This document shows, piece by piece, positions 1,342 to 22,156 of a stretch of 22,156 nucleotides of DNA. Where the stretch lies: NCBI GenBank assembly GCA_016937215.1, contig JAFGWI010000019.1:1-22156 (forward strand). The letters are read 5' to 3'. Position 1 is the stretch's first letter, and each line of letters begins with the position of its first letter. The DNA is from Spirochaetales bacterium. GTDB taxonomy: Bacteria; Spirochaetota; Spirochaetia; SZUA-6; JAFGRV01. The notes beneath the pieces were generated by a model that saw nothing but the letters and a program-made list of their open reading frames with translations, was not told the DNA's origin and did not search any database. The position numbers and the translations under genes were made by a program.

Positions 1342-1563
1342 CGAAGCTACTCTACTCGATGGAACTGTGTGCTGTCAAGCTTTCGTTAGTATTGCGGCAG
1401 GGCAAGGTTGTGAAATGGTTTCATGCCCTAATTAAGAGGTCTTGATGGATGTGTTGTCTCCGGGGTTAAAAACAGGGGCGGAACAAGGGGGTTGTGCGAG
1501 GGCTTTGGTTTTTGGCTTGAAAAAAAAGCACCTGGGTTTGAAGTGTTAGGGATAGGAGGCATG

Positions 1564-1735
1564 GCTTGCTATTTTTTCAAAAATGGCAAGCCAAAGCGTT
1601 TTATGCCGGATAATTTCCGGCATAAAACCTTCGGAGCGCCAGCGGAGTGCCGGATAGCCCGACCTGCCATGCCCCTGGGCGGCAGGTAACACCCAAAAAC
1701 AAGAGGAGGGCTGGCTTCTGGTTTCAACTTTTTTT
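1564..1735 (+). ncRNA. Candidate structured RNA/regulatory element, copy A (paralogue of 13279-13397)
   Basis: Hairpin gcttgc-N16-gcaagc (1564-1591) whose loop is the AT palindrome gctattttttcaaaaatggc. Hairpin atgccgg-ataattt-ccggcat (1603-1623). cttcgg (UUCG-type) followed by gagcgccagcggag (1629-1647). Hairpin cctgcc-N12-ggcagg (1663-1686). T7 run at 1729-1735. The first roughly 85 nt align nearly base-for-base with 13279-13365. Overlapping ORFs on both strands (1492..1689, 1546..1800) are judged spurious. Confidence 0.3.
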
Positions 1736-1902: not shown

Positions 1903-3246
1903 ATGAAAAAAACATTATTCTGCCTTATGCGGCCGGCGTTTTTATTTTTATTAGTGGTGATGATTTTGTTGTCCGCAATGGGCTGTGATGTGAGAAATGG
2001 GGCGGCTGAGGAAGGGCTTGGTGAAAAGGCTTTATTGGAACCCTTGGCTGTTATTGACCTGGGTGACCAAGGGGCTATCGAGTTTGTTGAGATTTCACCT
2101 GGTGAATTGGTTGTTGGCGCATTGCTGGGTTCTCCTGATGTTCAAATAAAGGGAATTGATGAATCTCCGCTGGCTGTTTACCGATTTTATACAGGCCAAG
2201 AGCCGCCAACTGAATTGCTGGCTGCTTATGAACGCAGCAAGGTTGCTCAGGCTTTGGATTCCGAGGTCACTGGTTCTGATAACCAGGTTATCCGTCAAGC
2301 TAGTTTGGCAGGCCAATCAAAAATGACGGCCAATGAATTTGAATCTGCCTATTTTAACGCGCCCAACATGAGCCAATATGATTATAAGGTGCTTTATAAA
2401 AATTCAACTGCTTTGTTCCGGACTATACAAAATTGTTTTACTCTTGGTATCCGGGTTTATTCCAGCCAGGGAACGGTCCGATTTAACCTGAAAACCAAAA
2501 TTGGAAGCAGCTGGTCAACTGAATATACCCGTGTTGTTCCTCAGGGAAGTACCTATTATGCTTATACTGGAGGAGTTTGGCGTTCCCGAATGGCGGAGGT
2601 TGTTGAGTCGGACAATGACATTTTCCAGGTAATGTATTTTGGAATGAAAAAAATTTTTGTTTGCGCGAGTTTTGGCGGAAGTTCCAGCACTGATATTCAT
2701 CCTGTTGTGGAAGAACAGGTAAAGGCCGAGGGGATTGTGTTCAATAGTAACAACTGGAATAAGAGTTCGGGTGATGGTGTGTGTTCAAGATCCGATGCTG
2801 ATCACGCGGCAGGAGTTATGAAAGACTGGGCTGCTTTGAATTCTCTGCCTCGGGCCAATATGAACCTTCTGGTTGTGGGTAAGAGCGCCGGAGGTGTCCG
2901 GGCCTGGTATGCTTTTAAACGGAATTTCGGGACACTTGATGATTTTAACAAAGTGGCACTGGTTTTTGTCGATCCCCATGGTTCAGCCCTTGGAGATGGT
3001 GAAGTTGGCACTTACAGCGACGATCAGAGCCTGACATGGCCATCATCCTGGTCCACCAACAAGAGCTTTTTCAGGGTCTATAATATTTATCAGCATTCAA
3101 ATGGATTAACAGGAGCCAGTTTTCCAAGTTCCAATGTTTATAAAAACATAAAAATTACCGGCAATAGTGTGAGTCATGATAATATTCCTGGCCGCCAGGA
3201 AACAAAGGATTTGATCAGAGAAGCTGTGAGGTTTTTAAAACCCTGA
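1903..3246 (+). CDS. Putative secreted lipoprotein, serine hydrolase (alpha/beta-hydrolase/lipase-esterase-like), 447 aa
   Basis: Signal peptide MKKTLFCLMRPAFLFLLVVMILLSAMGC with a Cys consistent with a lipobox. Nucleophile-elbow GxSxG motif in LLVVGKSAGGVRAWYAF, with downstream D and H candidates. SD-like aaaggagaaaag lies 5 nt before the ATG. Confidence 0.45.
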   Translation: MKKTLFCLMRPAFLFLLVVMILLSAMGCDVRNGAAEEGLGEKALLEPLAVIDLGDQGAIEFVEISPGELVVGALLGSPDVQIKGIDESPLAVYRFYTGQEPPTELLAAYERSKVAQALDSEVTGSDNQVIRQASLAGQSKMTANEFESAYFNAPNMSQYDYKVLYKNSTALFRTIQNCFTLGIRVYSSQGTVRFNLKTKIGSSWSTEYTRVVPQGSTYYAYTGGVWRSRMAEVVESDNDIFQVMYFGMKKIFVCASFGGSSSTDIHPVVEEQVKAEGIVFNSNNWNKSSGDGVCSRSDADHAAGVMKDWAALNSLPRANMNLLVVGKSAGGVRAWYAFKRNFGTLDDFNKVALVFVDPHGSALGDGEVGTYSDDQSLTWPSSWSTNKSFFRVYNIYQHSNGLTGASFPSSNVYKNIKITGNSVSHDNIPGRQETKDLIREAVRFLKP

Positions 3247-3277
3247 CAGAAATGCTTTGCATTTATTGCTTGGTGGA

Positions 3278-3389
3278 GTGAATTTTCATTGGCATTCACT
3301 TTTTGACGTGAATGCTCATTGGCATTCACTTTTTGACGTGAATGCTCATTGGCATTCACTTTTTGACGTGAATGCTCATTGGCATTCAC
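3278..3389. repeat. Tandem array of four 30-bp units, each carrying the palindrome GTGAATGC-TCATTG-GCATTCAC (REP-like); the first copy has a degenerate left arm (gtgaattt)
   Basis: Read directly from the sequence. Arms gtgaatgc at 3308, 3338 and 3368; arms gcattcac at 3292, 3322, 3352 and 3382; constant loop tcattg; constant inter-unit spacer tttttgac. A further degenerate palindrome aaatgctttgcattt sits at 3250-3264. The array lies between the stop of the hydrolase gene (3246) and its terminator hairpin (3435-3466), i.e. in its 3'UTR. ORFs 3257..3451 (+) and 3174..3506 (-) are translation artefacts of this repeat. Confidence 0.9.
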
Positions 3390-3434
3390 TTTTATCATGC
3401 CGTTATGCTGGAAAATATTGGGCAGAAAAGGCTT

Positions 3435-3480
3435 GGTTGTGCCTGTTATGAAAAATAGGCACAACCTGCTTTCTTTTTCG
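3435..3480 (+). terminator. Rho-independent terminator for the 1903-3246 gene
   Basis: Perfect 10-bp stem ggttgtgcct / aggcacaacc with a 12-nt loop, followed by tgctttctttttcg (T-rich tail). Confidence 0.55.
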
Positions 3481-3570
3481 AATGCATTCAAAAAAATAGC
3501 CCCCATTTAGCTAAACAAATACTTCACAGGCAGCTATAATCTGTAAAAATCATCGTTTTTAGAGCTATTT

Positions 3571-5749: not shown

Positions 5750-6217
5750 ATGTCTATAAACCTGGATAAGGGCTTTGTAAAAAAGCCCCGGGAACATGGA
5801 GGAATCAGGTTTATGCAGGATAAGATTCATGAAGAACTTGAATTTACTCTGGACCCCAAGAGCGGGGTTCCGTTTTATAAACAGATTATTCTACAGATAG
5901 AGATGGCCATAGCTGACAAGAGGCTGAATCAGGGTGACCAGCTGCCTACTGTTCGAGGGCTGGCAGTAGATTTGCAGGTGAATCCCAATACCGTGGCCCG
6001 GGCTTACAGTGAACTGGAAATCCGGGGGATTGTGAACACGCAACAAGGCACAGGAACCTTTATCAGCGACAAGAAGATCAAGCTCACCGAGGTAGAACGG
6101 GAAAGGATTCTGGCCGAGTTGGTGAGGGGATTTGTTTCCAAAGCGTCGTCCTATGGCTTTTCCCTGGCAGAGATCAGGACCTATCTGGAAGATCTGGAAA
6201 AAGATAAAGAGGAATAG
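5750..6217 (+). CDS. GntR-family transcriptional regulator, short YtrA-like subtype
   Basis: Winged-HTH signature LPTVRGLAVDLQVNPNTVARAYSELEIRGIVNTQQGTGTFI with only a short C-terminal extension. The ATG at 5750 has no SD. An internal ATG at 5813 (MQDKIHEEL...) is preceded by GGAGG at 5798-5802 and is the more likely true start, giving about 134 aa. Confidence 0.75.
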   Translation: MSINLDKGFVKKPREHGGIRFMQDKIHEELEFTLDPKSGVPFYKQIILQIEMAIADKRLNQGDQLPTVRGLAVDLQVNPNTVARAYSELEIRGIVNTQQGTGTFISDKKIKLTEVERERILAELVRGFVSKASSYGFSLAEIRTYLEDLEKDKEE

Positions 6218-6228
6218 GAGGAATTTTA

Positions 6229-7359
6229 ATGCTGGAGAAATTGACTTTTAAGGAACATAACCGAATTAAAAATTTGCCGAAATTGCATTTGCCCAAGGAT
6301 TTCGGTTATAATGCTTTTTCGTTTCTGGTGCTGGGCCTGTTTTTGGCTGCCGGAATCGTGATTCAAAACCTGGCCGTTGGTGAATTGGAATCGGAGGTGA
6401 TTCTGGCTGTCGTTCTGGGCACTTTTATGTGCGGCGGAATTTTGTACCTTGTTCCCATGTGGATCGCGGTGATTCAGTTTTCCATATTGGCCTGGGTTGG
6501 CCTTTATGTGGGAGTCGGCGGGAATATTTATCCCTTGTTCGGATTTCTGGTAGCTGCCTTTTTGTTTTCATCCTGCTTTCAACTGGTTCAGCATTGGGAC
6601 AAGGTAGTGATTCTGCGTTTCGGCAAATTCAGAAAAGCCAGAGGGCCAGGCTTGTTTTTGCTTTTTCCGATTATCGACCGTGTGGCTGCTTTTGTGGATA
6701 CCCGGATTCGAGCCACTGATTTCAGCGCTGAAAAAACTCTCACAGCAGATACGGTTCCTGTTCATGTGGACGCGCTGGCTTTCTGGATGGTTTGGGATGT
6801 GAAAGGGGCTGTGCTTGAGGTGGAGGATTTTGTGGAAGCTGTGGTTCTTTCTGCCCAGACTGCTTTGCGAGACGGCATTGGCAAGCATGAATTGGCCGAT
6901 CTATTGTCTGACCGGGACCAGCTGGGCAAGGAGATTCAGAAAATTCTTGATGCTAAAACAAGCCCCTGGGGCATTACGATTCTATCGATTGAAATTACTG
7001 ATATTATTATTCCCAAGGAACTGGAAGATGCCATGAGCCGACGTGCCCAGGCAGAGAGGGAGCGACAATCCCGGGTAATTCTGGGAACTGCGGAACTGGA
7101 AGTAGCTGATAAATTTCAACAGGCCGCGGAGAAATATAAAGATAATCCTACCGCCCTGCATTTACGCGCCATGAACATGATTTACGAGGGTATACGTAAA
7201 AAAGGCACTATCATGCTTCTGCCATCGAGTGCCCTGGATTCCATGTCTCTTGGCGCCAATCTGGGGGCATTGAATCTGGCCAAGGATTTTCAGCAGGGAA
7301 AGTTGGATGACTCATTTTTGCCTGATGAAGAAAAGGGAAATGGCGAAGCTGAGGATTAG
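6229..7359 (+). CDS. SPFH/band-7 (stomatin/prohibitin-like) membrane protein, 376 aa
   Basis: N-terminal hydrophobic helices. SPFH core VILRFGKF..GPGLFLLFPIIDRV...TADTVPVHVDALAFW...ITILSIEITDIIIPKELEDAMSRRAQAERERQSRVILGTAELE, then a coiled-coil and acidic tail. GGAGGA SD 7 nt before the ATG. The gene starts 11 bp after the GntR stop, so the two form an operon. Internal overlapping ORFs are spurious. Confidence 0.8.
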   Translation: MLEKLTFKEHNRIKNLPKLHLPKDFGYNAFSFLVLGLFLAAGIVIQNLAVGELESEVILAVVLGTFMCGGILYLVPMWIAVIQFSILAWVGLYVGVGGNIYPLFGFLVAAFLFSSCFQLVQHWDKVVILRFGKFRKARGPGLFLLFPIIDRVAAFVDTRIRATDFSAEKTLTADTVPVHVDALAFWMVWDVKGAVLEVEDFVEAVVLSAQTALRDGIGKHELADLLSDRDQLGKEIQKILDAKTSPWGITILSIEITDIIIPKELEDAMSRRAQAERERQSRVILGTAELEVADKFQQAAEKYKDNPTALHLRAMNMIYEGIRKKGTIMLLPSSALDSMSLGANLGALNLAKDFQQGKLDDSFLPDEEKGNGEAED

Positions 7360-7501
7360 GCAATCAACTGGAGGCAAAATGTGATCCATGGCATTGAGTT
7401 GTTTGGGAATTTTTTGGGCGTTGCCTGATAAGCCCGGGACAACAATTCTATATTTGAGTACAAATATTACGAATTGCGAGTTATTTTACTTCGGTGCTGT
7501 G

Positions 7502-7590
7502 GCCATTCCAAATATAAACTATTATTAAGGCAGTTAAAAATCATCAGCTGTAATTAAATTGCATACAAAAAGGTTTATATTTGGAATGGC
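7502..7590. repeat. Perfect 18-bp inverted repeat gccattccaaatataaac / gtttatatttggaatggc separated by 53 AT-rich nt
   Basis: Read directly: 7502-7519 is the exact reverse complement of 7573-7590. Could be a stem-loop RNA or a MITE-like element. Confidence 0.85.
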
Positions 7591-7614
7591 TTAGCCGGGG
7601 GCTTTCAGGCTGCA

Positions 7615-7705
7615 GAAACTGTTGCATAACTATAATTAAGAGTATTTCAACTCGCCTACTGGGTCCATAATTGGTTTAGACGAGTTATTCATAGGCAACA
7701 GTTTC
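7615..7705. repeat. Second long-range inverted repeat gaaactgttgc(ataact) / (agttat)tcatag-gcaacagtttc enclosing about 70 nt
   Basis: 11-bp perfect arms at 7615-7625 and 7695-7705. A 6-bp extension (ataact/agttat) is interrupted by a 6-nt bulge. Confidence 0.6.
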
Positions 7706-7832
7706 GTATTTTAAGGTTGTGCAACAACCTCTGCATGGCCGAGCAACAAATCGAAGATTTGTGACAAGGCCCGCCACTTCGGCTTCGCCTTCGAAGGTTA
7801 AGGTGCGGAAGTTATCCGCCCCTTAACGCTTT

Positions 7833-7862
7833 GTTCGACTATTTTTGAAAAAATAGTCGAAC
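7833..7862. promoter_or_regulatory. Perfect 14+14 bp palindrome gttcgactattttt-ga-aaaaatagtcgaac about 120 bp upstream of the ABC operon
   Basis: Read directly. Flanked by near-direct repeats ccttaacgcttt (7821-7832) and ccctaacgctttt (7875-7887). The AT-rich centre ctatttttgaaaaaatag is nearly the reverse complement of the palindrome at the head of element A (1568-1587). Candidate protein operator or element boundary. Confidence 0.5.
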
Positions 7863-7982
7863 ATGGCTTCAATCCCTAACGCTTTTAGCCGGGGTGCTGT
7901 TATTGGCTAGAGAGGCAGGAAGCATATATTCCGCTGACTTGCTTCCATCAAGGAAATCATAGATTTGGAAAAGGAGAGAACG

Positions 7983-13135: not shown

Positions 13136-13172
13136 AAAAGCCATTTAGTAAGCAGCCCTTACTATTTCTCGG

Positions 13173-13233
13173 AGGTGGTGTTAGCTCTTGTCTCTTTTTC
13201 AAAGCGAAAGGGAGATTAACACCGCCTTTTTTC
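13173..13233 (+). terminator. Rho-independent terminator of the ABC/LolA-like/OMP operon
   Basis: Stem ggtggtgttag (13173-13183) pairing with ttaacaccgcc (13216-13226) with G-U wobbles, followed by ttttttc (13227-13233). Confidence 0.55.
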
Positions 13234-13278
13234 ATTGGCTATTGTGCTGAATGTGTTAGTGATTGGAGCTGTGAGGAG

Positions 13279-13397
13279 GTTTTTTTCAAAAAACCGACGA
13301 AAAGCTTTTTGCCGCGTTTTTAGCGGCAAAAACTTCGGAGCGAAAGCGGAGCAGTGGAATGAACGGCCCCGGAAGGGTGTTTTTGTGCCGGTTTTTT
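13279..13397 (+). ncRNA. Candidate structured RNA/regulatory element, copy B (paralogue of 1564-1735)
   Basis: Palindrome ggttttttt-c-aaaaaacc (13279-13296). Hairpin ttgccgc-gttttta-gcggcaa (13309-13329). cttcgg + agcgaaagcggag (13333-13351). T6 run at 13392-13397. Same order and spacing as copy A, with compensatory changes in the 7-bp hairpin. Confidence 0.3.
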
Positions 13398-13556
13398 GCC
13401 CAGGTTATAATTACTATTTCGCGGAAGCGTATAAAGAATCCAGTTTGCTGTAAAAACGCGGGCAAAACCATTTTGAATAGCAATAATGTTACGGCACAGG
13501 ATTCCCTTCCGGGGAAACACCCCAGAGAGTAAAATGATTTATATGGCCGCGTAATT

Positions 13557-17499: not shown

Positions 17500-17686
17500 G
17501 GGTGACTCCTTGTGCTATAAAGTGGCTTTAAAAGCCCTGTTTTTTTGCTGACCCCTTCTCTGAGCCAGGCAGCTGGTTTTCAATCCCCTAGGGAATAGGA
17601 AGCAGGCAAGCTTGTTTTTCAAAACAAACGCAGCCAGCAACAACCATGCTGGCCAAAGCTGACAAGCGCAATCAGGCTGCATGGAT

Positions 17687-17744
17687 ATAGTGAATCCCAA
17701 TGAGGATTCACGTGGACATAGTGAATCCCAATGAGGATTCACGT
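17687..17744. repeat. Two tandem 27-bp units (31-bp period) each containing the palindrome GTGAATCC-CAATGA-GGATTCAC
   Basis: Read directly. atagtgaatcccaatgaggattcacgt appears at 17687-17713 and again at 17718-17744. Read on the minus strand it is GTGAATCC-TCATTG-GGATTCAC, the same loop and arm family as the 3278-3389 array. Located in the divergent region between the LTD lipoprotein gene and the Crp/Fnr-like gene. Confidence 0.85.
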
Positions 17745-18703: not shown

Positions 18704-18920
18704 AAAGGGCCTTCGCCGACTGCGCCTTCGGTTCTATAATATTCTTGATCAGAAGGTGGGGCGGGAGAAAGCAGTGCTTCGCCGGACTATTGGGGAGATC
18801 GAGAAGCTTTTGGCTGGCAGGAAGTGAAGGGCTTGTTATCCTCTATAGATTTGAGCTGATTTGACAGAGCATTTTGGGAACGATCAATAAGAACCGACGT
18901 TTTTTTCAAGCCGCTAAACC

Positions 18921-20015: not shown

Positions 20016-20350
20016 GTTGATCGGGTCTCAAAACCCTCCATGCCGTGCCAGACCCCGGGACGCGGCAAAAACCGGTTGTCAATAATACTCTTTTTGGGCT
20101 GTTTGGAAAAGGGGGCCGGCATACTCTCGTGCCATTTGCGGGCTTCTTTTTTTTGGGCATTACCTGGTGAAAAGGCTAATTGACACAGCTTCCCGGAACC
20201 CGAACGAACAGCCCCCAAAACAGCGGCACCAGGCCCGGGCTTTCCGCTCCAACTCCTCGCGCCGCTGAATAAACGGAAGCTTCCGGATCTCTCTCCTTTC
20301 TCACGAGCCCCGCGGCCTTGCCCCGGCGCGGCGCTGCGGGGTTTCCGCTT
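20016..20350 (-). other. GC-rich non-coding island upstream of mnmA: candidate structured RNA or leader (identity unresolved)
   Basis: Markedly more G+C-rich than the surrounding sequence, with runs such as ccccggg, gcgccgc and cccgggc. The only ORF (20012..20353) translates to low-complexity RG/PG-rich text. Contains stems, e.g. ccccgcgg...ctgcgggg and the perfect palindrome cggaagcttccg. Strand assigned only by position relative to mnmA. Confidence 0.25.
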
Positions 20351-20755
20351 CAATCCCTAATGCGGTGAAAGGCGGGCTGTGGCCGGAATTGGCGCTGGGC
20401 ATAATCGATCCAGCTGTCTTCCTGTATGGCATGAAAGCTGGTGCTCAGCGCTATGTTCAGGGTATCACCTGTATTTTGATCCAGAACAATGTTTTTTTGG
20501 CCCGGAATGTCTGACACAGGGAGCCATGCTTTGAAATTCAGCATTCAGGTTAATATTTTTATGAAGCTGAGCCTCGTGCTTCAAGCTTTGAAGATGCTCC
20601 TCTTCCTCAAAAAGCTTTTCATCATAGGGGGCCGCCCGCGCCAGCTTCATCAAGCTCTTAACAGTGTTGAAATGAGCAGTTAAATCGCATGCCCCCCCTA
20701 AGATTACAGGATTTTTTAGTGTGAAACCCGGAAATTTGGTCTTTAGAGTGGCCAT
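20350..20755 (-). pseudogene. Small gene (about 135 aa if merged) split into two frames at a T7/A7 homopolymer (20492-20498)
   Basis: ORFs 20465..20755 and 20350..20544 are adjacent, same strand, in different frames, and overlap exactly over the homopolymer. A 1-nt indel would fuse them (MATLKTKFPGF...HSGP | KNIVLDQNTGDTLNIALSTSFHAIQED...). Could be a sequencing error, a true pseudogene, or slippage. Confidence 0.3.
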
Positions 20756-21094: not shown

Positions 21095-22156
21095 TTAGTT
21101 ATTCATCATAGTAGCGCAAAAAACGATAAAATTTTGAGCCGGGTATTCGATCCCATTTATTGTAACGGTCCCAACAGCTGTATCTGTGTAGATAGTATCA
21201 CTCGTAACATCATAATTAGCCACAATCGTTGAAATGGTCGTTGAGTCAAAAGTAATAACCAAATTTGCGGTTATGGTTCTGGTCGTGTCTTCATTAAAGG
21301 TTTCTGAAAGTGTTCCGTTTACTGAAAATGGATGTGGTGAAGTTGGTAAGGGTGTATTTGTGAATGTTGTTATTTGTCCATTATCAGAGATGGGTGTTTT
21401 CTCAATGGTGGGATCCTGATCTCCAGCAGCCCAGCTGAGCATCATTGCTGTGAATAAAAAATTATATCCTATTTCTTCATTGTCTATTTCAGGATCTGGT
21501 GTTACTTCAGGGTCGTTTGAAATATTTTGAATCAAATAAGTATAAAATGCCTGAGCGTTTATTTCAACATCGTTTATAATAATTGTACCGACTGCAATAG
21601 GATCGGCTATGTTCGAATTGTCATAATCAAATGACCCGTTGATTGTGAATAAATTGGGGTCATTGGTGAAAATGAAATTGAAAGTTATATTTCCGTTTAT
21701 TTCTGTGCCAGTTGATAATAAATTTCCGCTTGCCTTATAATCTGGTTCTTCTGAATTGTATACAGCATTATTTAAAGTTGCATTCATCACGCCATCACTA
21801 TTGCTAGCTGAAACTGTTGTGCCATCAGGGTCAGTGATCTGTCGATAAAGATTTGTGCATACCTCATAAGCATATAATTCTGTTTCTTCATTTAACACCG
21901 GGATTTCAGTTACTTCAGGTTCCGGTGTCACTTCAGGTTCCGGTGTCACTTCAGGTTCTGGTGTCACTTCAGGTTCTGGTGTCACTTCAGGTTCTGGTGT
22001 CACTTCAGGTTCCGGTGTCACTTCAGGTTCTGGTGTCACTTCAGGTTCCGGTGTTACTTCAGGTTCCGGTGTTACTTCAGGTTCCGGTGTTACTTCAGGT
22101 TCCGGTGTTACTTCAGGTTCCGGTGTTACTTCAGGTTCTGGTGTTACTTCAGGTTC
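21095..22156 (-). CDS. Secreted/surface repeat protein, 5'-truncated by the window edge: N-terminal (TPEPEV)n linker then two related Thr/Asn/Ile-rich beta-type domains
   Basis: The reading frame is open to the end of the window. The M at 22039 in the ORF track is a GTG (Val) codon inside the repeat, not a start. The C-terminal part contains an internal duplication ([22 protein letters not shown] vs [22 protein letters not shown]). Confidence 0.7.
21911..22156. repeat. At least 13 tandem copies of the 18-bp unit ggttcYggtgtYacttca (encoding TPEPEV on the minus strand), continuing past the window end
   Basis: Read directly. Units differ only at two Y positions, which fall on third codon positions (ccg/cca Pro, gtg/gta Val). 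Confidence 0.9.

Follow-up and report, generated by a model that had tools for sequence, protein, structure and literature searches.

A 22,156-nt contig of a Spirochaetales metagenome-assembled genome (MAG; contig JAFGWI010000019.1), analyzed in its entirety and hereafter designated the window, carries between an operon and a convergent gene a plus-strand structured element, copy B (13253 to about 13400), which belongs to a family of six related elements dispersed through the intergenic DNA. Copy B is a partly decayed member of a strand-specific structured repeat, which we lean toward viewing as an element like repetitive extragenic palindromic (REP) and BOX sequences that is probably mobile and active as a folded single strand. 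In sequence and predicted fold, the repeat shows homology to the Flavo-1 class (RF01705), of which it is a spirochaete variant with a novel four-way junction. At its present site, copy B most likely has no dedicated regulatory role, being at most a stable structure between two convergent transcription units.

Extent and parts of copy B

A sequence-only reading of the window had located copy B at 13279–13397. Alignment with the most intact member of the family, copy A, bore out the copy and moved the start, since the shared element begins 26 nt earlier. The two copies are identical in 76% of the columns across about 150 nt and have in common the 5' box, two covarying hairpins, and the invariant string CTTCGGAGCG-NN-AGCGGAG. 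The order of motifs described previously, that is, an AT palindrome (P2), a GC hairpin (P3), CTTCGGAGCGAAAGCGGAG (P4), and T-runs, is all present in the sequence. The 19-mer CTTCGGAGCGNNAGCGGAG, found in the window at 1629 and 13333 only, gave no match in 100 shuffles. The core of P4 (13340–13347) matches the 'mini-hairpin DNA' consensus GCGNNAGC, and P3 is terminator-like when read on the minus strand. The 5' box, whose counterpart in copy A is GTGTTAGGGATAGGAG (from 1543), occurs also in Rfam-confirmed Flavo-1 loci and in the original Flavo-1 alignment. On the 3' side, a U-rich tail stands in copy B where copy A has a 3' hairpin and a closing stem, and the basal helix of copy B keeps three of its five pairs (GUG/AAC and UU/AU), one of which (U-A) is compensated.

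With the start at 13253, the terminator of the upstream operon (13170–13232) ends about 20 nt before copy B, not about 45 nt as had been estimated. This terminator consists of GGTGGTGTTAGCTC...GGAGATTAACACCGCC followed by T6, contains GGTGTTAG, which resembles the 5' box of the element, as well as TTAACAC, and was missed by a simple terminator scan, whose rule does not allow for so long a loop.

Fold and covariation

RNAalifold analysis of copies A, B, and C predicted a four-way junction for all three. The 4-bp helix closing the junction is compensated in every copy (GGCA/UGCC in A, GCUG/CAGU in B, and GCCA/UGGC in C), and the stems of P2 (GGCUUGC, GUUCGAC, and GG) and P3 (AUGCCGG/CCGGCAU in A, UUGCCGC/GCGGCAA in B, and GGGGCGG/CCGCACC in C) are fully compensated between copies, so that the hairpin covariation noticed at first sight is real. 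The P4 stem is CUUCG...CGGAG in A and B and has CGAAG in C. When the pairs in the helices of the three copies were counted by hand, the sense strand was found to contain four G-U pairs and no A-C pairs, indicating that the sense strand is the one aligned (plus for A and B, minus for C). Among 40 unique relatives, folding favors the sense over the antisense strand in 35, with a mean difference of 4.05 kcal/mol. Across 29 sequences, pair 16/66 covaries perfectly between U-A (17) and A-U (12), a score reached by none of 500 shuffles. Copy A folds at −73 kcal/mol with z = −5.25 against shuffles; the fold of copy B is not better than those of its own shuffles (z = −0.77).

The intact form, seen in copy A, is a three-way junction in which a closing stem (GYGUUA/UAACRC) meets a long arm and a short hairpin on the 3' side. 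The conserved Flavo-1 internal loops, [GGG]A[UW]GNA[GC..]/[..GC]GNA[WA]G[CCC], are found at the base of the long arm, into which two extra hairpins are inserted in this genome. These insertions, one being the mini-module GGA-GCGNNAGC-GGA, give rise to the four-way junction. Copy A is intact, whereas copies B and C are partly decayed, as judged from the missing basal pairs and absent closing stem of B and the shortened basal 3' strand of C; the junction itself is retained in B.

Relationship to Flavo-1

Nothing in the window reached the gathering threshold in an Rfam scan (42 bits for Flavo-1). In a permissive scan, the Flavo-1 model was placed partially on copy B (21.2 bits, E 0.053), on P3 and P4 and not on the basal helix, and found nothing on copy A. 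The sub-threshold scores indicate that the element is a new variant and not a curated member of Flavo-1. A metagenome scan with a pattern of the 5' box plus loop led to flavobacterial loci, seven of which are called Flavo-1 by Rfam with 47–60 bits. Moreover, R1, a covariance model built from copies A, B, and C only, matches nine loci end to end (model positions 1–122; P3 and P4 are skipped in the printed alignments) with E values from 7e-7 to 6e-3, and six of these nine (L119, L120, L110, L113, L117, and L123) are Rfam-confirmed Flavo-1 in the same range of 47–60 bits. The matched loci had been fetched with a pattern derived from the window, and only their 3' halves thus provide independent evidence. 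Indeed, the 3' strand GGAWAGCCCGACC, the short hairpin, and the closing strand (G/U)AACGCC, which pairs with the 5' GCGUU, lie outside the search pattern, yet match copy A.

On the Flavo-1 architecture, copy A reads GUGUUA[GGG]A[UA]GGA[GGCA]...[UGCC]GGA[UA]G[CCC]GA-hairpin-UAACAC, and its closing stem shows a compensated change from C-G to U-A relative to the flavobacterial loci. R2, a second covariance model built from 29 canonical elements, aligns copy A as GGGAUAGGAGG..[65]..CCGGAUAGCCC. The basal helix with its conserved loops and W/W covariation is complete in copy A, reduced in B as described above, and shortened on its 3' strand in C. A single distal hairpin closing the long arm is found in none of A, B, and C, where the arm ends in the three hairpins P2, P3, and P4. 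P2 overlies the Flavo-1 distal stem in the covariance-model alignments and is the counterpart of the flavobacterial U-run/A-run distal stem.

The Flavo-1 class comprises 239 members, is classed as non-cis-regulatory, and is nearly confined to Flavobacteria, the rest being from Bacteroidetes or Spirochaetes (Weinberg et al. 2010, PMC2864571). The original alignment shows the same boxes, two base subtypes, highly variable distal inserts, and distal loops such as GAGCGAUAGCGUAGC, and includes a Treponema member, T. denticola NC_002967.9 (PMC2864571). This range, namely Bacteroidota and a few Spirochaetes, fits the Spirochaetales MAG from which the contig derives. In Flavobacterium psychrophilum, many Flavo-1 copies are untranscribed, and relative to transcribed regions both sense and antisense placements occur (PMC9723704).

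GC-rich relatives were observed in a Treponema sp. MAG at L016 (6241–6314) and L018 (about 6150–6260), each with CTTCGGAGCG-NN-AGCGGAG followed by GGGATAGCCTGCC..GGCAGG, as in copy A. The unit AGCGGAGCCCGGAGTGAC is duplicated in L018; L016 scores 20 bits with R1 and has no Rfam match.

The six copies in the window

Searches with nhmmer, BLAST, and covariance models gave six copies in 22 kb, three on the plus strand (A, B, and E) and three on the minus strand (C, D, and F), all of them intergenic. Of the nine intergenic regions that exceed 200 nt, five are occupied by these copies. The nhmmer profile was built from A and B and found copy C at 7884–7771. The sequence-only reading had suspected further degenerate copies from the recurrence of aaccgacg with T7 at 18893; further copies do exist, namely C–F, and the site at 18893 is not one of them, as the match is limited to an 8-mer for which about 0.7 chance occurrences are expected in 2 × 22 kb (BLAST E 4). 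The long intergenic regions of this contig are thus filled by one repeat family rather than by riboswitches or small RNA (sRNA) genes.

Copy A, about 200 nt upstream of a plus-strand gene, possesses the closing stem GUGUUA/UAACAC, the Flavo-1 basal helix, the four-way junction, a 3' hairpin CCUGCC..GGCAGG, and a tail CCAAAAAC. Copy C lies about 80 nt upstream of the start of an ABC operon, from which it is divergent; its P4 has GCGAAGC. Copies D and E represent a second variant. In copy D, a region resembling the 5' box and two hairpins, one of them an AT hairpin (together 3492–3403), are followed by about four tandem 30-nt GTGAAT..ATTCAC hairpin units (3388–3269), and in copy E, the 5' box CUAGGGAAUAGGAAG and hairpins are followed by two 31-nt GTGAAT hairpin units and the 3' end GUAAAACCCUAAAAAAAC. 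These tandem units (3269–3388 on the plus strand and, inversely oriented, 17682–17743), the middle module of D and E, are perfect hairpins, GTGAATGC-TCATTG-GCATTCAC. Read on the plus strand (3308–3389), three of the D units are hairpins followed by T5 just after the gene at 1903–3246, with four terminator-like sites against 0.4 expected. Copy F is a minimal form, GCAUUA[GGG]A[UU]GAAGCGGA[AA]C[CCC]G followed by a GC-rich hairpin.

The genomic contexts of the copies differ: B and D lie between convergent genes, A and E in divergent regions beside unrelated genes, and C antisense between tandem genes. The genes of the window include an ABC/FtsX/LolA-like/outer membrane protein (OMP) operon and those for DUF5312, Fer4, cNMP-binding, RecO, LigT, GntR, SPFH, and MnmA proteins; no transposase or integrase is among them. 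At the end of the contig (21855–22156, and also 21485–21514), at least 11 tandem 18-nt units CACTTCAGGTTCTGGTGT run off the contig end; this repeat overlaps the upstream end of the minus-strand open reading frame 21095–22039, presumably for a hexapeptide-repeat protein, and extends upstream to the contig end.

Table 1. Coordinates of the repeat copies, of the parts of copy B, and of related elements. Positions without a locus identifier refer to the window; R1 and R2 are the covariance models described in the text.
Feature	Position	Strand	Description and basis
Copy B, whole	13253..13400	+	5' box, four-way junction, damaged basal 3' strand; R1 91.4 bits over 13253-13368; nhmmer E 2e-43
Copy B, 5' box	13253..13268	+	GTGTTAGTGATTGGAG; corresponds to Flavo-1 5' strand GCGUUA[GGG]A[UW]GNAG; kept in A, B, and C
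Copy B, junction-closing helix, 5' strand	13268..13271	+	GCUG; 4 bp, partner 13352-13355; RNAalifold columns 20-23 with 111-114
Copy B, P2, AT palindrome	13278..13295	+	GGTTTTTTTCAAAAAACC (RNA GGUUUUUUU CAAAAAACC); sequence, RNAalifold
Copy B, P3, GC hairpin	13306..13332	+	TTTTTGCCGC/GCGGCAAAAA (RNA UUUUUGCCGC-GUUUUUA-GCGGCAAAAA); insertion relative to canonical Flavo-1
Copy B, P4	13333..13351	+	CTTCGGAGCGAAAGCGGAG = CUUC-GGA-GCGAAAGC-GGA-G; unique to A and B in the window
Copy B, junction-closing helix, 3' strand	13352..13355	+	CAGU; RNAalifold
Copy B, basal 3' strand	13356..13368	+	GGAAUGAACGGCC; homologous to GGAUAGCCCGACC of copy A and Flavo-1; R1 alignment and hand mapping
Copy B, 3' tail	13369..13400	+	CCCGGAAGGGUGUUUUUGUGCCGGUUUUUUGC; T-runs 13380-13384 and 13392-13397; without UAACAC closing strand
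Possible inverted fragment of a further copy	13444..13473	-	Like P3 5' arm and loop; inverted repeat; BLAST with B positions 66-96, 80.6%, E 0.028; weak
Copy A, most intact	1543..1699	+	R1 141.5 bits; fold z -5.25
Copy C	7762..7882	-	nhmmer E 3e-9; R1 121.7 bits
Copy D, second variant	3269..3492	-	BLAST A vs D E 7e-8; R1 19.9 bits, E 6e-4; repeat family; aligned to E
Copy E, same variant as D	17569..~17800	+	BLAST A vs E E 5e-4; D/E alignment 71% identity
Copy F, minimal form	20309..20367	-	R2 16.3 bits, E 0.013; R1 14.3 bits
Flavo-1-type elements, complete Microviridae/Inoviridae genomes	L259 4293-4398; L260 4088-4254; L261 4586-4673; L262 2443-2523; L263 4277-4362; L264 1185-1276		
Flavo-1-type elements, IMG/VR loci	L133, L137, L140, L149, L152, L155, L179, L182, L221, L229, L230, L235, L247		
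CTTC...GAAG hairpin, attC-like sites	L004, L011, L032, L057, L079, L083		In the variable centre of the site
CTTC...GAAG hairpin, other loci	L005/L008; L047, L049, L082; L006; L078; L251-L258		L005/L008, Kapaibacterium; L047, L049, L082, Patescibacteria; L251-L258, viral

Occurrence in related genomes

Searches with R1, R2, BLAST, and motifs revealed no copy in 102 kb covering seven loci of five related Spirochaetales MAGs, where about 28 copies would be expected at the density of the window; part of this set had been reached via a phosphorylase homologue and served as extra negative controls. The family is thus lineage-specific and was probably acquired or amplified in this lineage. In one of the loci, L108, a DUF5312 gene is convergent with the same ABC/LolA/OMP operon, and the spacer that houses copy B in the window (421 nt) measures only 42 nt. 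A second difference from L108 was observed at the other end of the operon: in L108 (16090–17201) the gene for the GntR regulator abuts that for the ABC ATPase, whereas in the window (5750–7964) an SPFH/Band-7 gene and a 605-nt spacer intervene, the spacer containing copy C and a 37-nt inverted repeat (7502–7590). In the literature, no repeat of this kind was found described for Flavobacterium or for microviruses.

Elements in single-stranded DNA phages and the mini-hairpin motif

Scanning viral contigs for GCGTTAGGGATNGNAG yielded 122 matches, close to the chance expectation for a 14-mer, and the whole architecture was present in 36 of them. A microvirus capsid gene accompanies the element in 11 of the 36 IMG/VR element loci as against none of 84 control loci (Fisher p = 5e-7), and two further element loci are inovirus-like, with Zot and Rep genes. 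Full elements were located in non-coding regions of GenBank Microviridae (Peromfec virus RodF7_7, Microvirus mar49, Microvirus mar63, bajarodmic virus 65, and MG945282) and, in sense orientation, in that of Dulem virus 62 (Inoviridae). R2 recovers all of the GenBank phage elements with E values of 1e-9 to 1e-16; the Rfam Flavo-1 model stays below threshold on every phage copy, and no paper mentioning Flavo-1-type elements in these phages was found. The element is better conserved than the flanking phage sequence, and both its position and its orientation vary among the phage genomes, the orientation being sense in three and antisense in two of the five GenBank microviruses. The possibility that it always resides on the packaged (+) strand of microviruses was rejected, as 14 of the 36 IMG/VR loci have it on the majority coding strand and the GenBank genomes have both orientations. 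A plasmid collection searched with the phage-type element gave no match.

The smallest element, 50 nt in L152, reads [GGG]A[UA]GCA[GC]GCCA[GC]GAA[UA]G[CCC] plus a 3' hairpin, a layout from which the core module follows as helix-GNA-GC..GC-GNA-helix. The same plan recurs in miniature in the P4 of the window copies (CUUC-GGA-GC-GNNA-GC-GGA-G), whose NN core is GCGAAAGC in B, GCGCCAGC in A, and GCGAAGC in C. Sequences of the GCGNNAGC and GCGNAGC types constitute the mini-hairpin DNA consensus, are exceptionally stable in DNA form but much less stable in RNA form, and occur at the primase start of the complementary-strand origins of phages G4, St-1, and alpha3, in ssiA, and in N4 promoters (PMC13037366). 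Among the matches listed from a scan of a genome collection with the 19-mer, most are chance matches in GC-rich genomes, and Treponema relatives are present as well; 18 of the 104 listed matches, against 1.6 expected, extend to ...GAAG and thereby complete the hairpin CTTC-GGA-GCGNNAGC-GGA-GAAG. The loops in this hairpin family are mostly not GNRA. The hairpin, with its mini-hairpin-DNA core between symmetric GGA/GGA, is widespread across phyla, and it also tips a Flavo-like element in one phage family. The presence of a Flavo-1-type element in the non-coding DNA of Microviridae and Inoviridae, carrying mini-hairpin-DNA sequences, merits follow-up.

Origin and possible function of the repeat

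The sequence-only reading had ranked a REP-like extragenic element or an independent sRNA above a riboswitch. The former has gained from six copies in 22 kb against none in 102 kb of related genomes, from the empty site in L108, and from the modular and decayed copies; the case for an sRNA is weak, as discussed below. In the reading that we favor, the family would be a non-autonomous REP/BOX-like and probably mobile element that may have been acquired and amplified in this lineage and inserted into intergenic DNA either way round. Its active form would be a folded single strand recognized in trans by some factor, and DNA appears somewhat likelier than RNA as that strand, in view of the mini-hairpin DNA sequences, the non-GNRA loops, the residence in single-stranded DNA (ssDNA) phages, and the untranscribed or antisense copies.

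Several points weigh against this reading. No transposase, recombinase, terminal inverted repeats, or target-site duplication was identified, and mobility is deduced from distribution only; by inspection, nothing apart from the 6-bp closing stem (GTGTTA/TAACAC in A) looks like a terminal inverted repeat, and no direct duplication is evident at the ends of copy A or of 40 relatives. Identity among the copies of the contig is only about 70%, which makes any amplification an old one, and the compensated stems and loops conserved across two phyla point to selection on function rather than to pure junk. G-U (G-T) pairs and GNNA loops fit RNA and DNA alike, and a preprint reports Flavo-1 matches within unannotated transcribed regions of Leptospira. 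The element occurs on either strand relative to microvirus genes, which is a poor fit to a simple packaged-strand role, and the copy count covers one 22-kb contig of the genome. Finally, R2 gives only 9.1 bits (E 0.8) for copy A, 7.7 for B, and 12.4 for C, the low score of A being due to the 65-nt insert that has to be bridged; with the Rfam scores also below threshold, the link to Flavo-1 rests on R1 and the architecture.

Four other explanations were considered. Copy B is quite unlikely to be an independent sRNA gene of a multi-copy, trans-acting or protein-binding family with its own promoter at about 13252 and an end at the T-run near 13397. A sigma-70-like TTAACA-18-TATTGT does end at 13245, 7 nt ahead of copy B, but such a match is at chance level (1 found, 1.5 expected), and copies A, C, D, and E have no sense-strand promoter-like site upstream. 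Similarly, GCCGG followed by T6 stands in the tail of copy B (13388–13397), whereas the terminator scan did not call this T-run hairpin as a terminator and copies A and C have no T-run. The strand-specific fold with G-U pairs, the Rfam entry type 'Gene; sRNA' for Flavo-1, and the Leptospira transcripts would suit an sRNA; against them stand the many untranscribed or antisense copies of F. psychrophilum (PMC9723704), the several microviruses in which the sense strand of the element is the non-coding strand, and the fold of copy B, which is no better than that of its shuffles. By inspection, copies A and B contain six GGA motifs each, reminiscent of CsrA-type sponges, while copy C has only two. 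It is also improbable that the repeat is kept for a passive RNA role in 3' untranslated regions, protecting mRNA 3' ends or blocking read-through between convergent genes as some REP elements do. Such a role would agree with the location of B and D right after the ends of convergent genes, with the D-type tandem hairpins and T5 downstream of the gene at 1903–3246, and with the high stability of copy A; however, a real terminator already precedes copy B, A and E occupy regions of divergent promoters, C runs antisense in the space between tandem genes, a mere barrier would not require sequence-specific internal loops that are conserved across phyla, and the element is missing from the corresponding site in related genomes, as in L108.

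That the element is a working ssDNA signal, either a priming site (a complementary-strand origin of the G4-type/ssi/sso class) or a folded recombination site for host or integrated or transferred ssDNA elements, with the chromosomal copies including B being functional or relics, is unlikely. The architecture, in which a long imperfect hairpin is conserved at its base and variable at its tip, recalls the single-strand origin (sso) elements of rolling-circle plasmids. Two unrelated families of ssDNA phages, which share only host-dependent steps such as complementary-strand priming, have the same fold in their non-coding DNA, the mini-hairpins of the element are of the kind seen at the phage primase start sites and ssiA (PMC13037366), and the P4 module recurs in the variable centre of attC-like sites. 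These points are offset by the mixed orientation to microvirus genes (about 9 sense against 6–7 antisense in IMG/VR and GenBank), by the 3:3 distribution of the chromosomal copies between the strands of one contig, which shows no replication-strand bias, by the window otherwise showing no sign of an integrated ssDNA element or an integrative and conjugative element, by the loss of the closing stem and 3' hairpin from copy B, and by the GTTA...TAAC order, which is opposite to that of attC. Finally, it is extremely improbable that the similarity of A and B arose by chance from A/T runs and generic hairpins or terminators, or that the element is a riboswitch or cis-leader. Low-complexity A/T palindromes do occur in the element, and copy A is followed by a plus-strand gene. 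Neither the 19-mer nor the 5' box, both common to A, B, and C, is of low complexity, so that the similarity is not confined to A/T runs, and no chance matches to either are expected. R1 gives 91–141 bits for A, B, and C, which are its own building sequences. No Rfam riboswitch matched, and no consistent gene lies downstream: copy B sits between convergent genes, C is antisense, and the six copies occur in divergent, convergent, and tandem contexts in both orientations, in line with the earlier view that copy B cannot be a 5' leader. A riboswitch or cis-leader was thus rejected from the context, as the copies are neither consistently upstream of related genes nor co-oriented with them.

Along with the favored reading of copy B as a mobile REP/BOX-like repeat, a wider proposal may be entertained, which we consider possible but doubtful. 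Flavo-1 as a whole might be a cross-phylum family of folded ssDNA elements rather than an sRNA, built as three-way junctions of helix-GNA-GC..GC-GNA-helix modules capped by GCGNNAGC mini-hairpins. In the Microviridae and Inoviridae of Bacteroidota it might serve a host-dependent step (complementary-strand priming or integration), and it might have spread as mobile REP-like copies into Flavobacteria and, horizontally, into this spirochaete lineage, gaining hairpins and amplifying to about one copy per 4 kb. Flavo-1, for which we know of no established function, has been among the most abundant function-unknown Rfam motifs since 2010 and now has testable leads: a spirochaete carries an amplified four-way-junction variant of it, and its architecture is larger than the curated model. 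The question of what Flavo-1 is thereby becomes an experimental one, between an ssDNA signal or mobile repeat and an sRNA.

Comparison with known systems

With single-strand initiation signals (G4-type origins, ssi, and sso), the element shares folding as ssDNA, a conserved base with a variable tip, mini-hairpins of the GCGNNAGC type (PMC13037366), and a location in the non-coding DNA of ssDNA phages. It differs in that its orientation to phage genes varies, and dozens of chromosomal copies lacking strand bias would be unexpected for such signals; any priming role is putative. Integron attC sites likewise act as folded single strands, in which the paired boxes are conserved, some bases stay unpaired, and the terminal structure is highly variable, and the CTTC-GGA-GCGNNAGC-GGA-GAAG hairpin is found in the centre of attC-like sites; however, attC is a single bulged hairpin, whereas the element forms a three-way junction and belongs to no cassette array. 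An attC identity was rejected because the polarity of the boxes is reversed on both strands (5'-GTTA...TAAC-3' as against 5'-RYYYAAC...GTTRRRY-3') and the window has no integrase.

The closest likeness is to Flavo-1 itself, with which the repeat has in common the 5' strand GYGUUA[GGG]A[UW]GNAG, the 3' strand GNA[WA]G[CCC]GACC, the 1×1 and 3×3 internal loops in both, the U-run/A-run distal stem, a distal part of variable length, and a multi-copy, intergenic occurrence in either orientation to transcription. The copies in this contig differ in having P3 and P4 added on the 3' side, which leads to the four-way junction, and in the damaged basal helices of B and C. The closing stem and 3' hairpin, present in copy A and all 40 collected relatives, lie outside the Rfam model.

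In their distribution, the copies resemble the REP sequences and bacterial interspersed mosaic elements of Proteobacteria, which are mobilized by REP-associated tyrosine transposases: both are short, structured, extragenic repeats of high copy number that occur in both orientations, are lineage-specific, have compensated stems, are often located between convergent genes, and are thought to act as folded single strands. REP sequences are imperfect palindromes of 20–40 bp, whereas the element is branched, 120–230 nt long, unrelated in sequence, and without a GTAG/CGTC tag at its ends. In its modularity, it resembles the BOX elements of Streptococcus pneumoniae (boxA-boxB(n)-boxC), Correia elements, and other repeats like miniature inverted-repeat transposable elements, since D and E consist of conserved 5' and 3' modules around a variable number of tandem hairpins of about 30 nt; all are intergenic, fold stably, and have no coding capacity. 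Their sequences are unrelated to that of the element described here, in which neither terminal inverted repeats nor target duplications were observed, and the conserved non-Watson-Crick internal loops belong to it and not to BOX or Correia.

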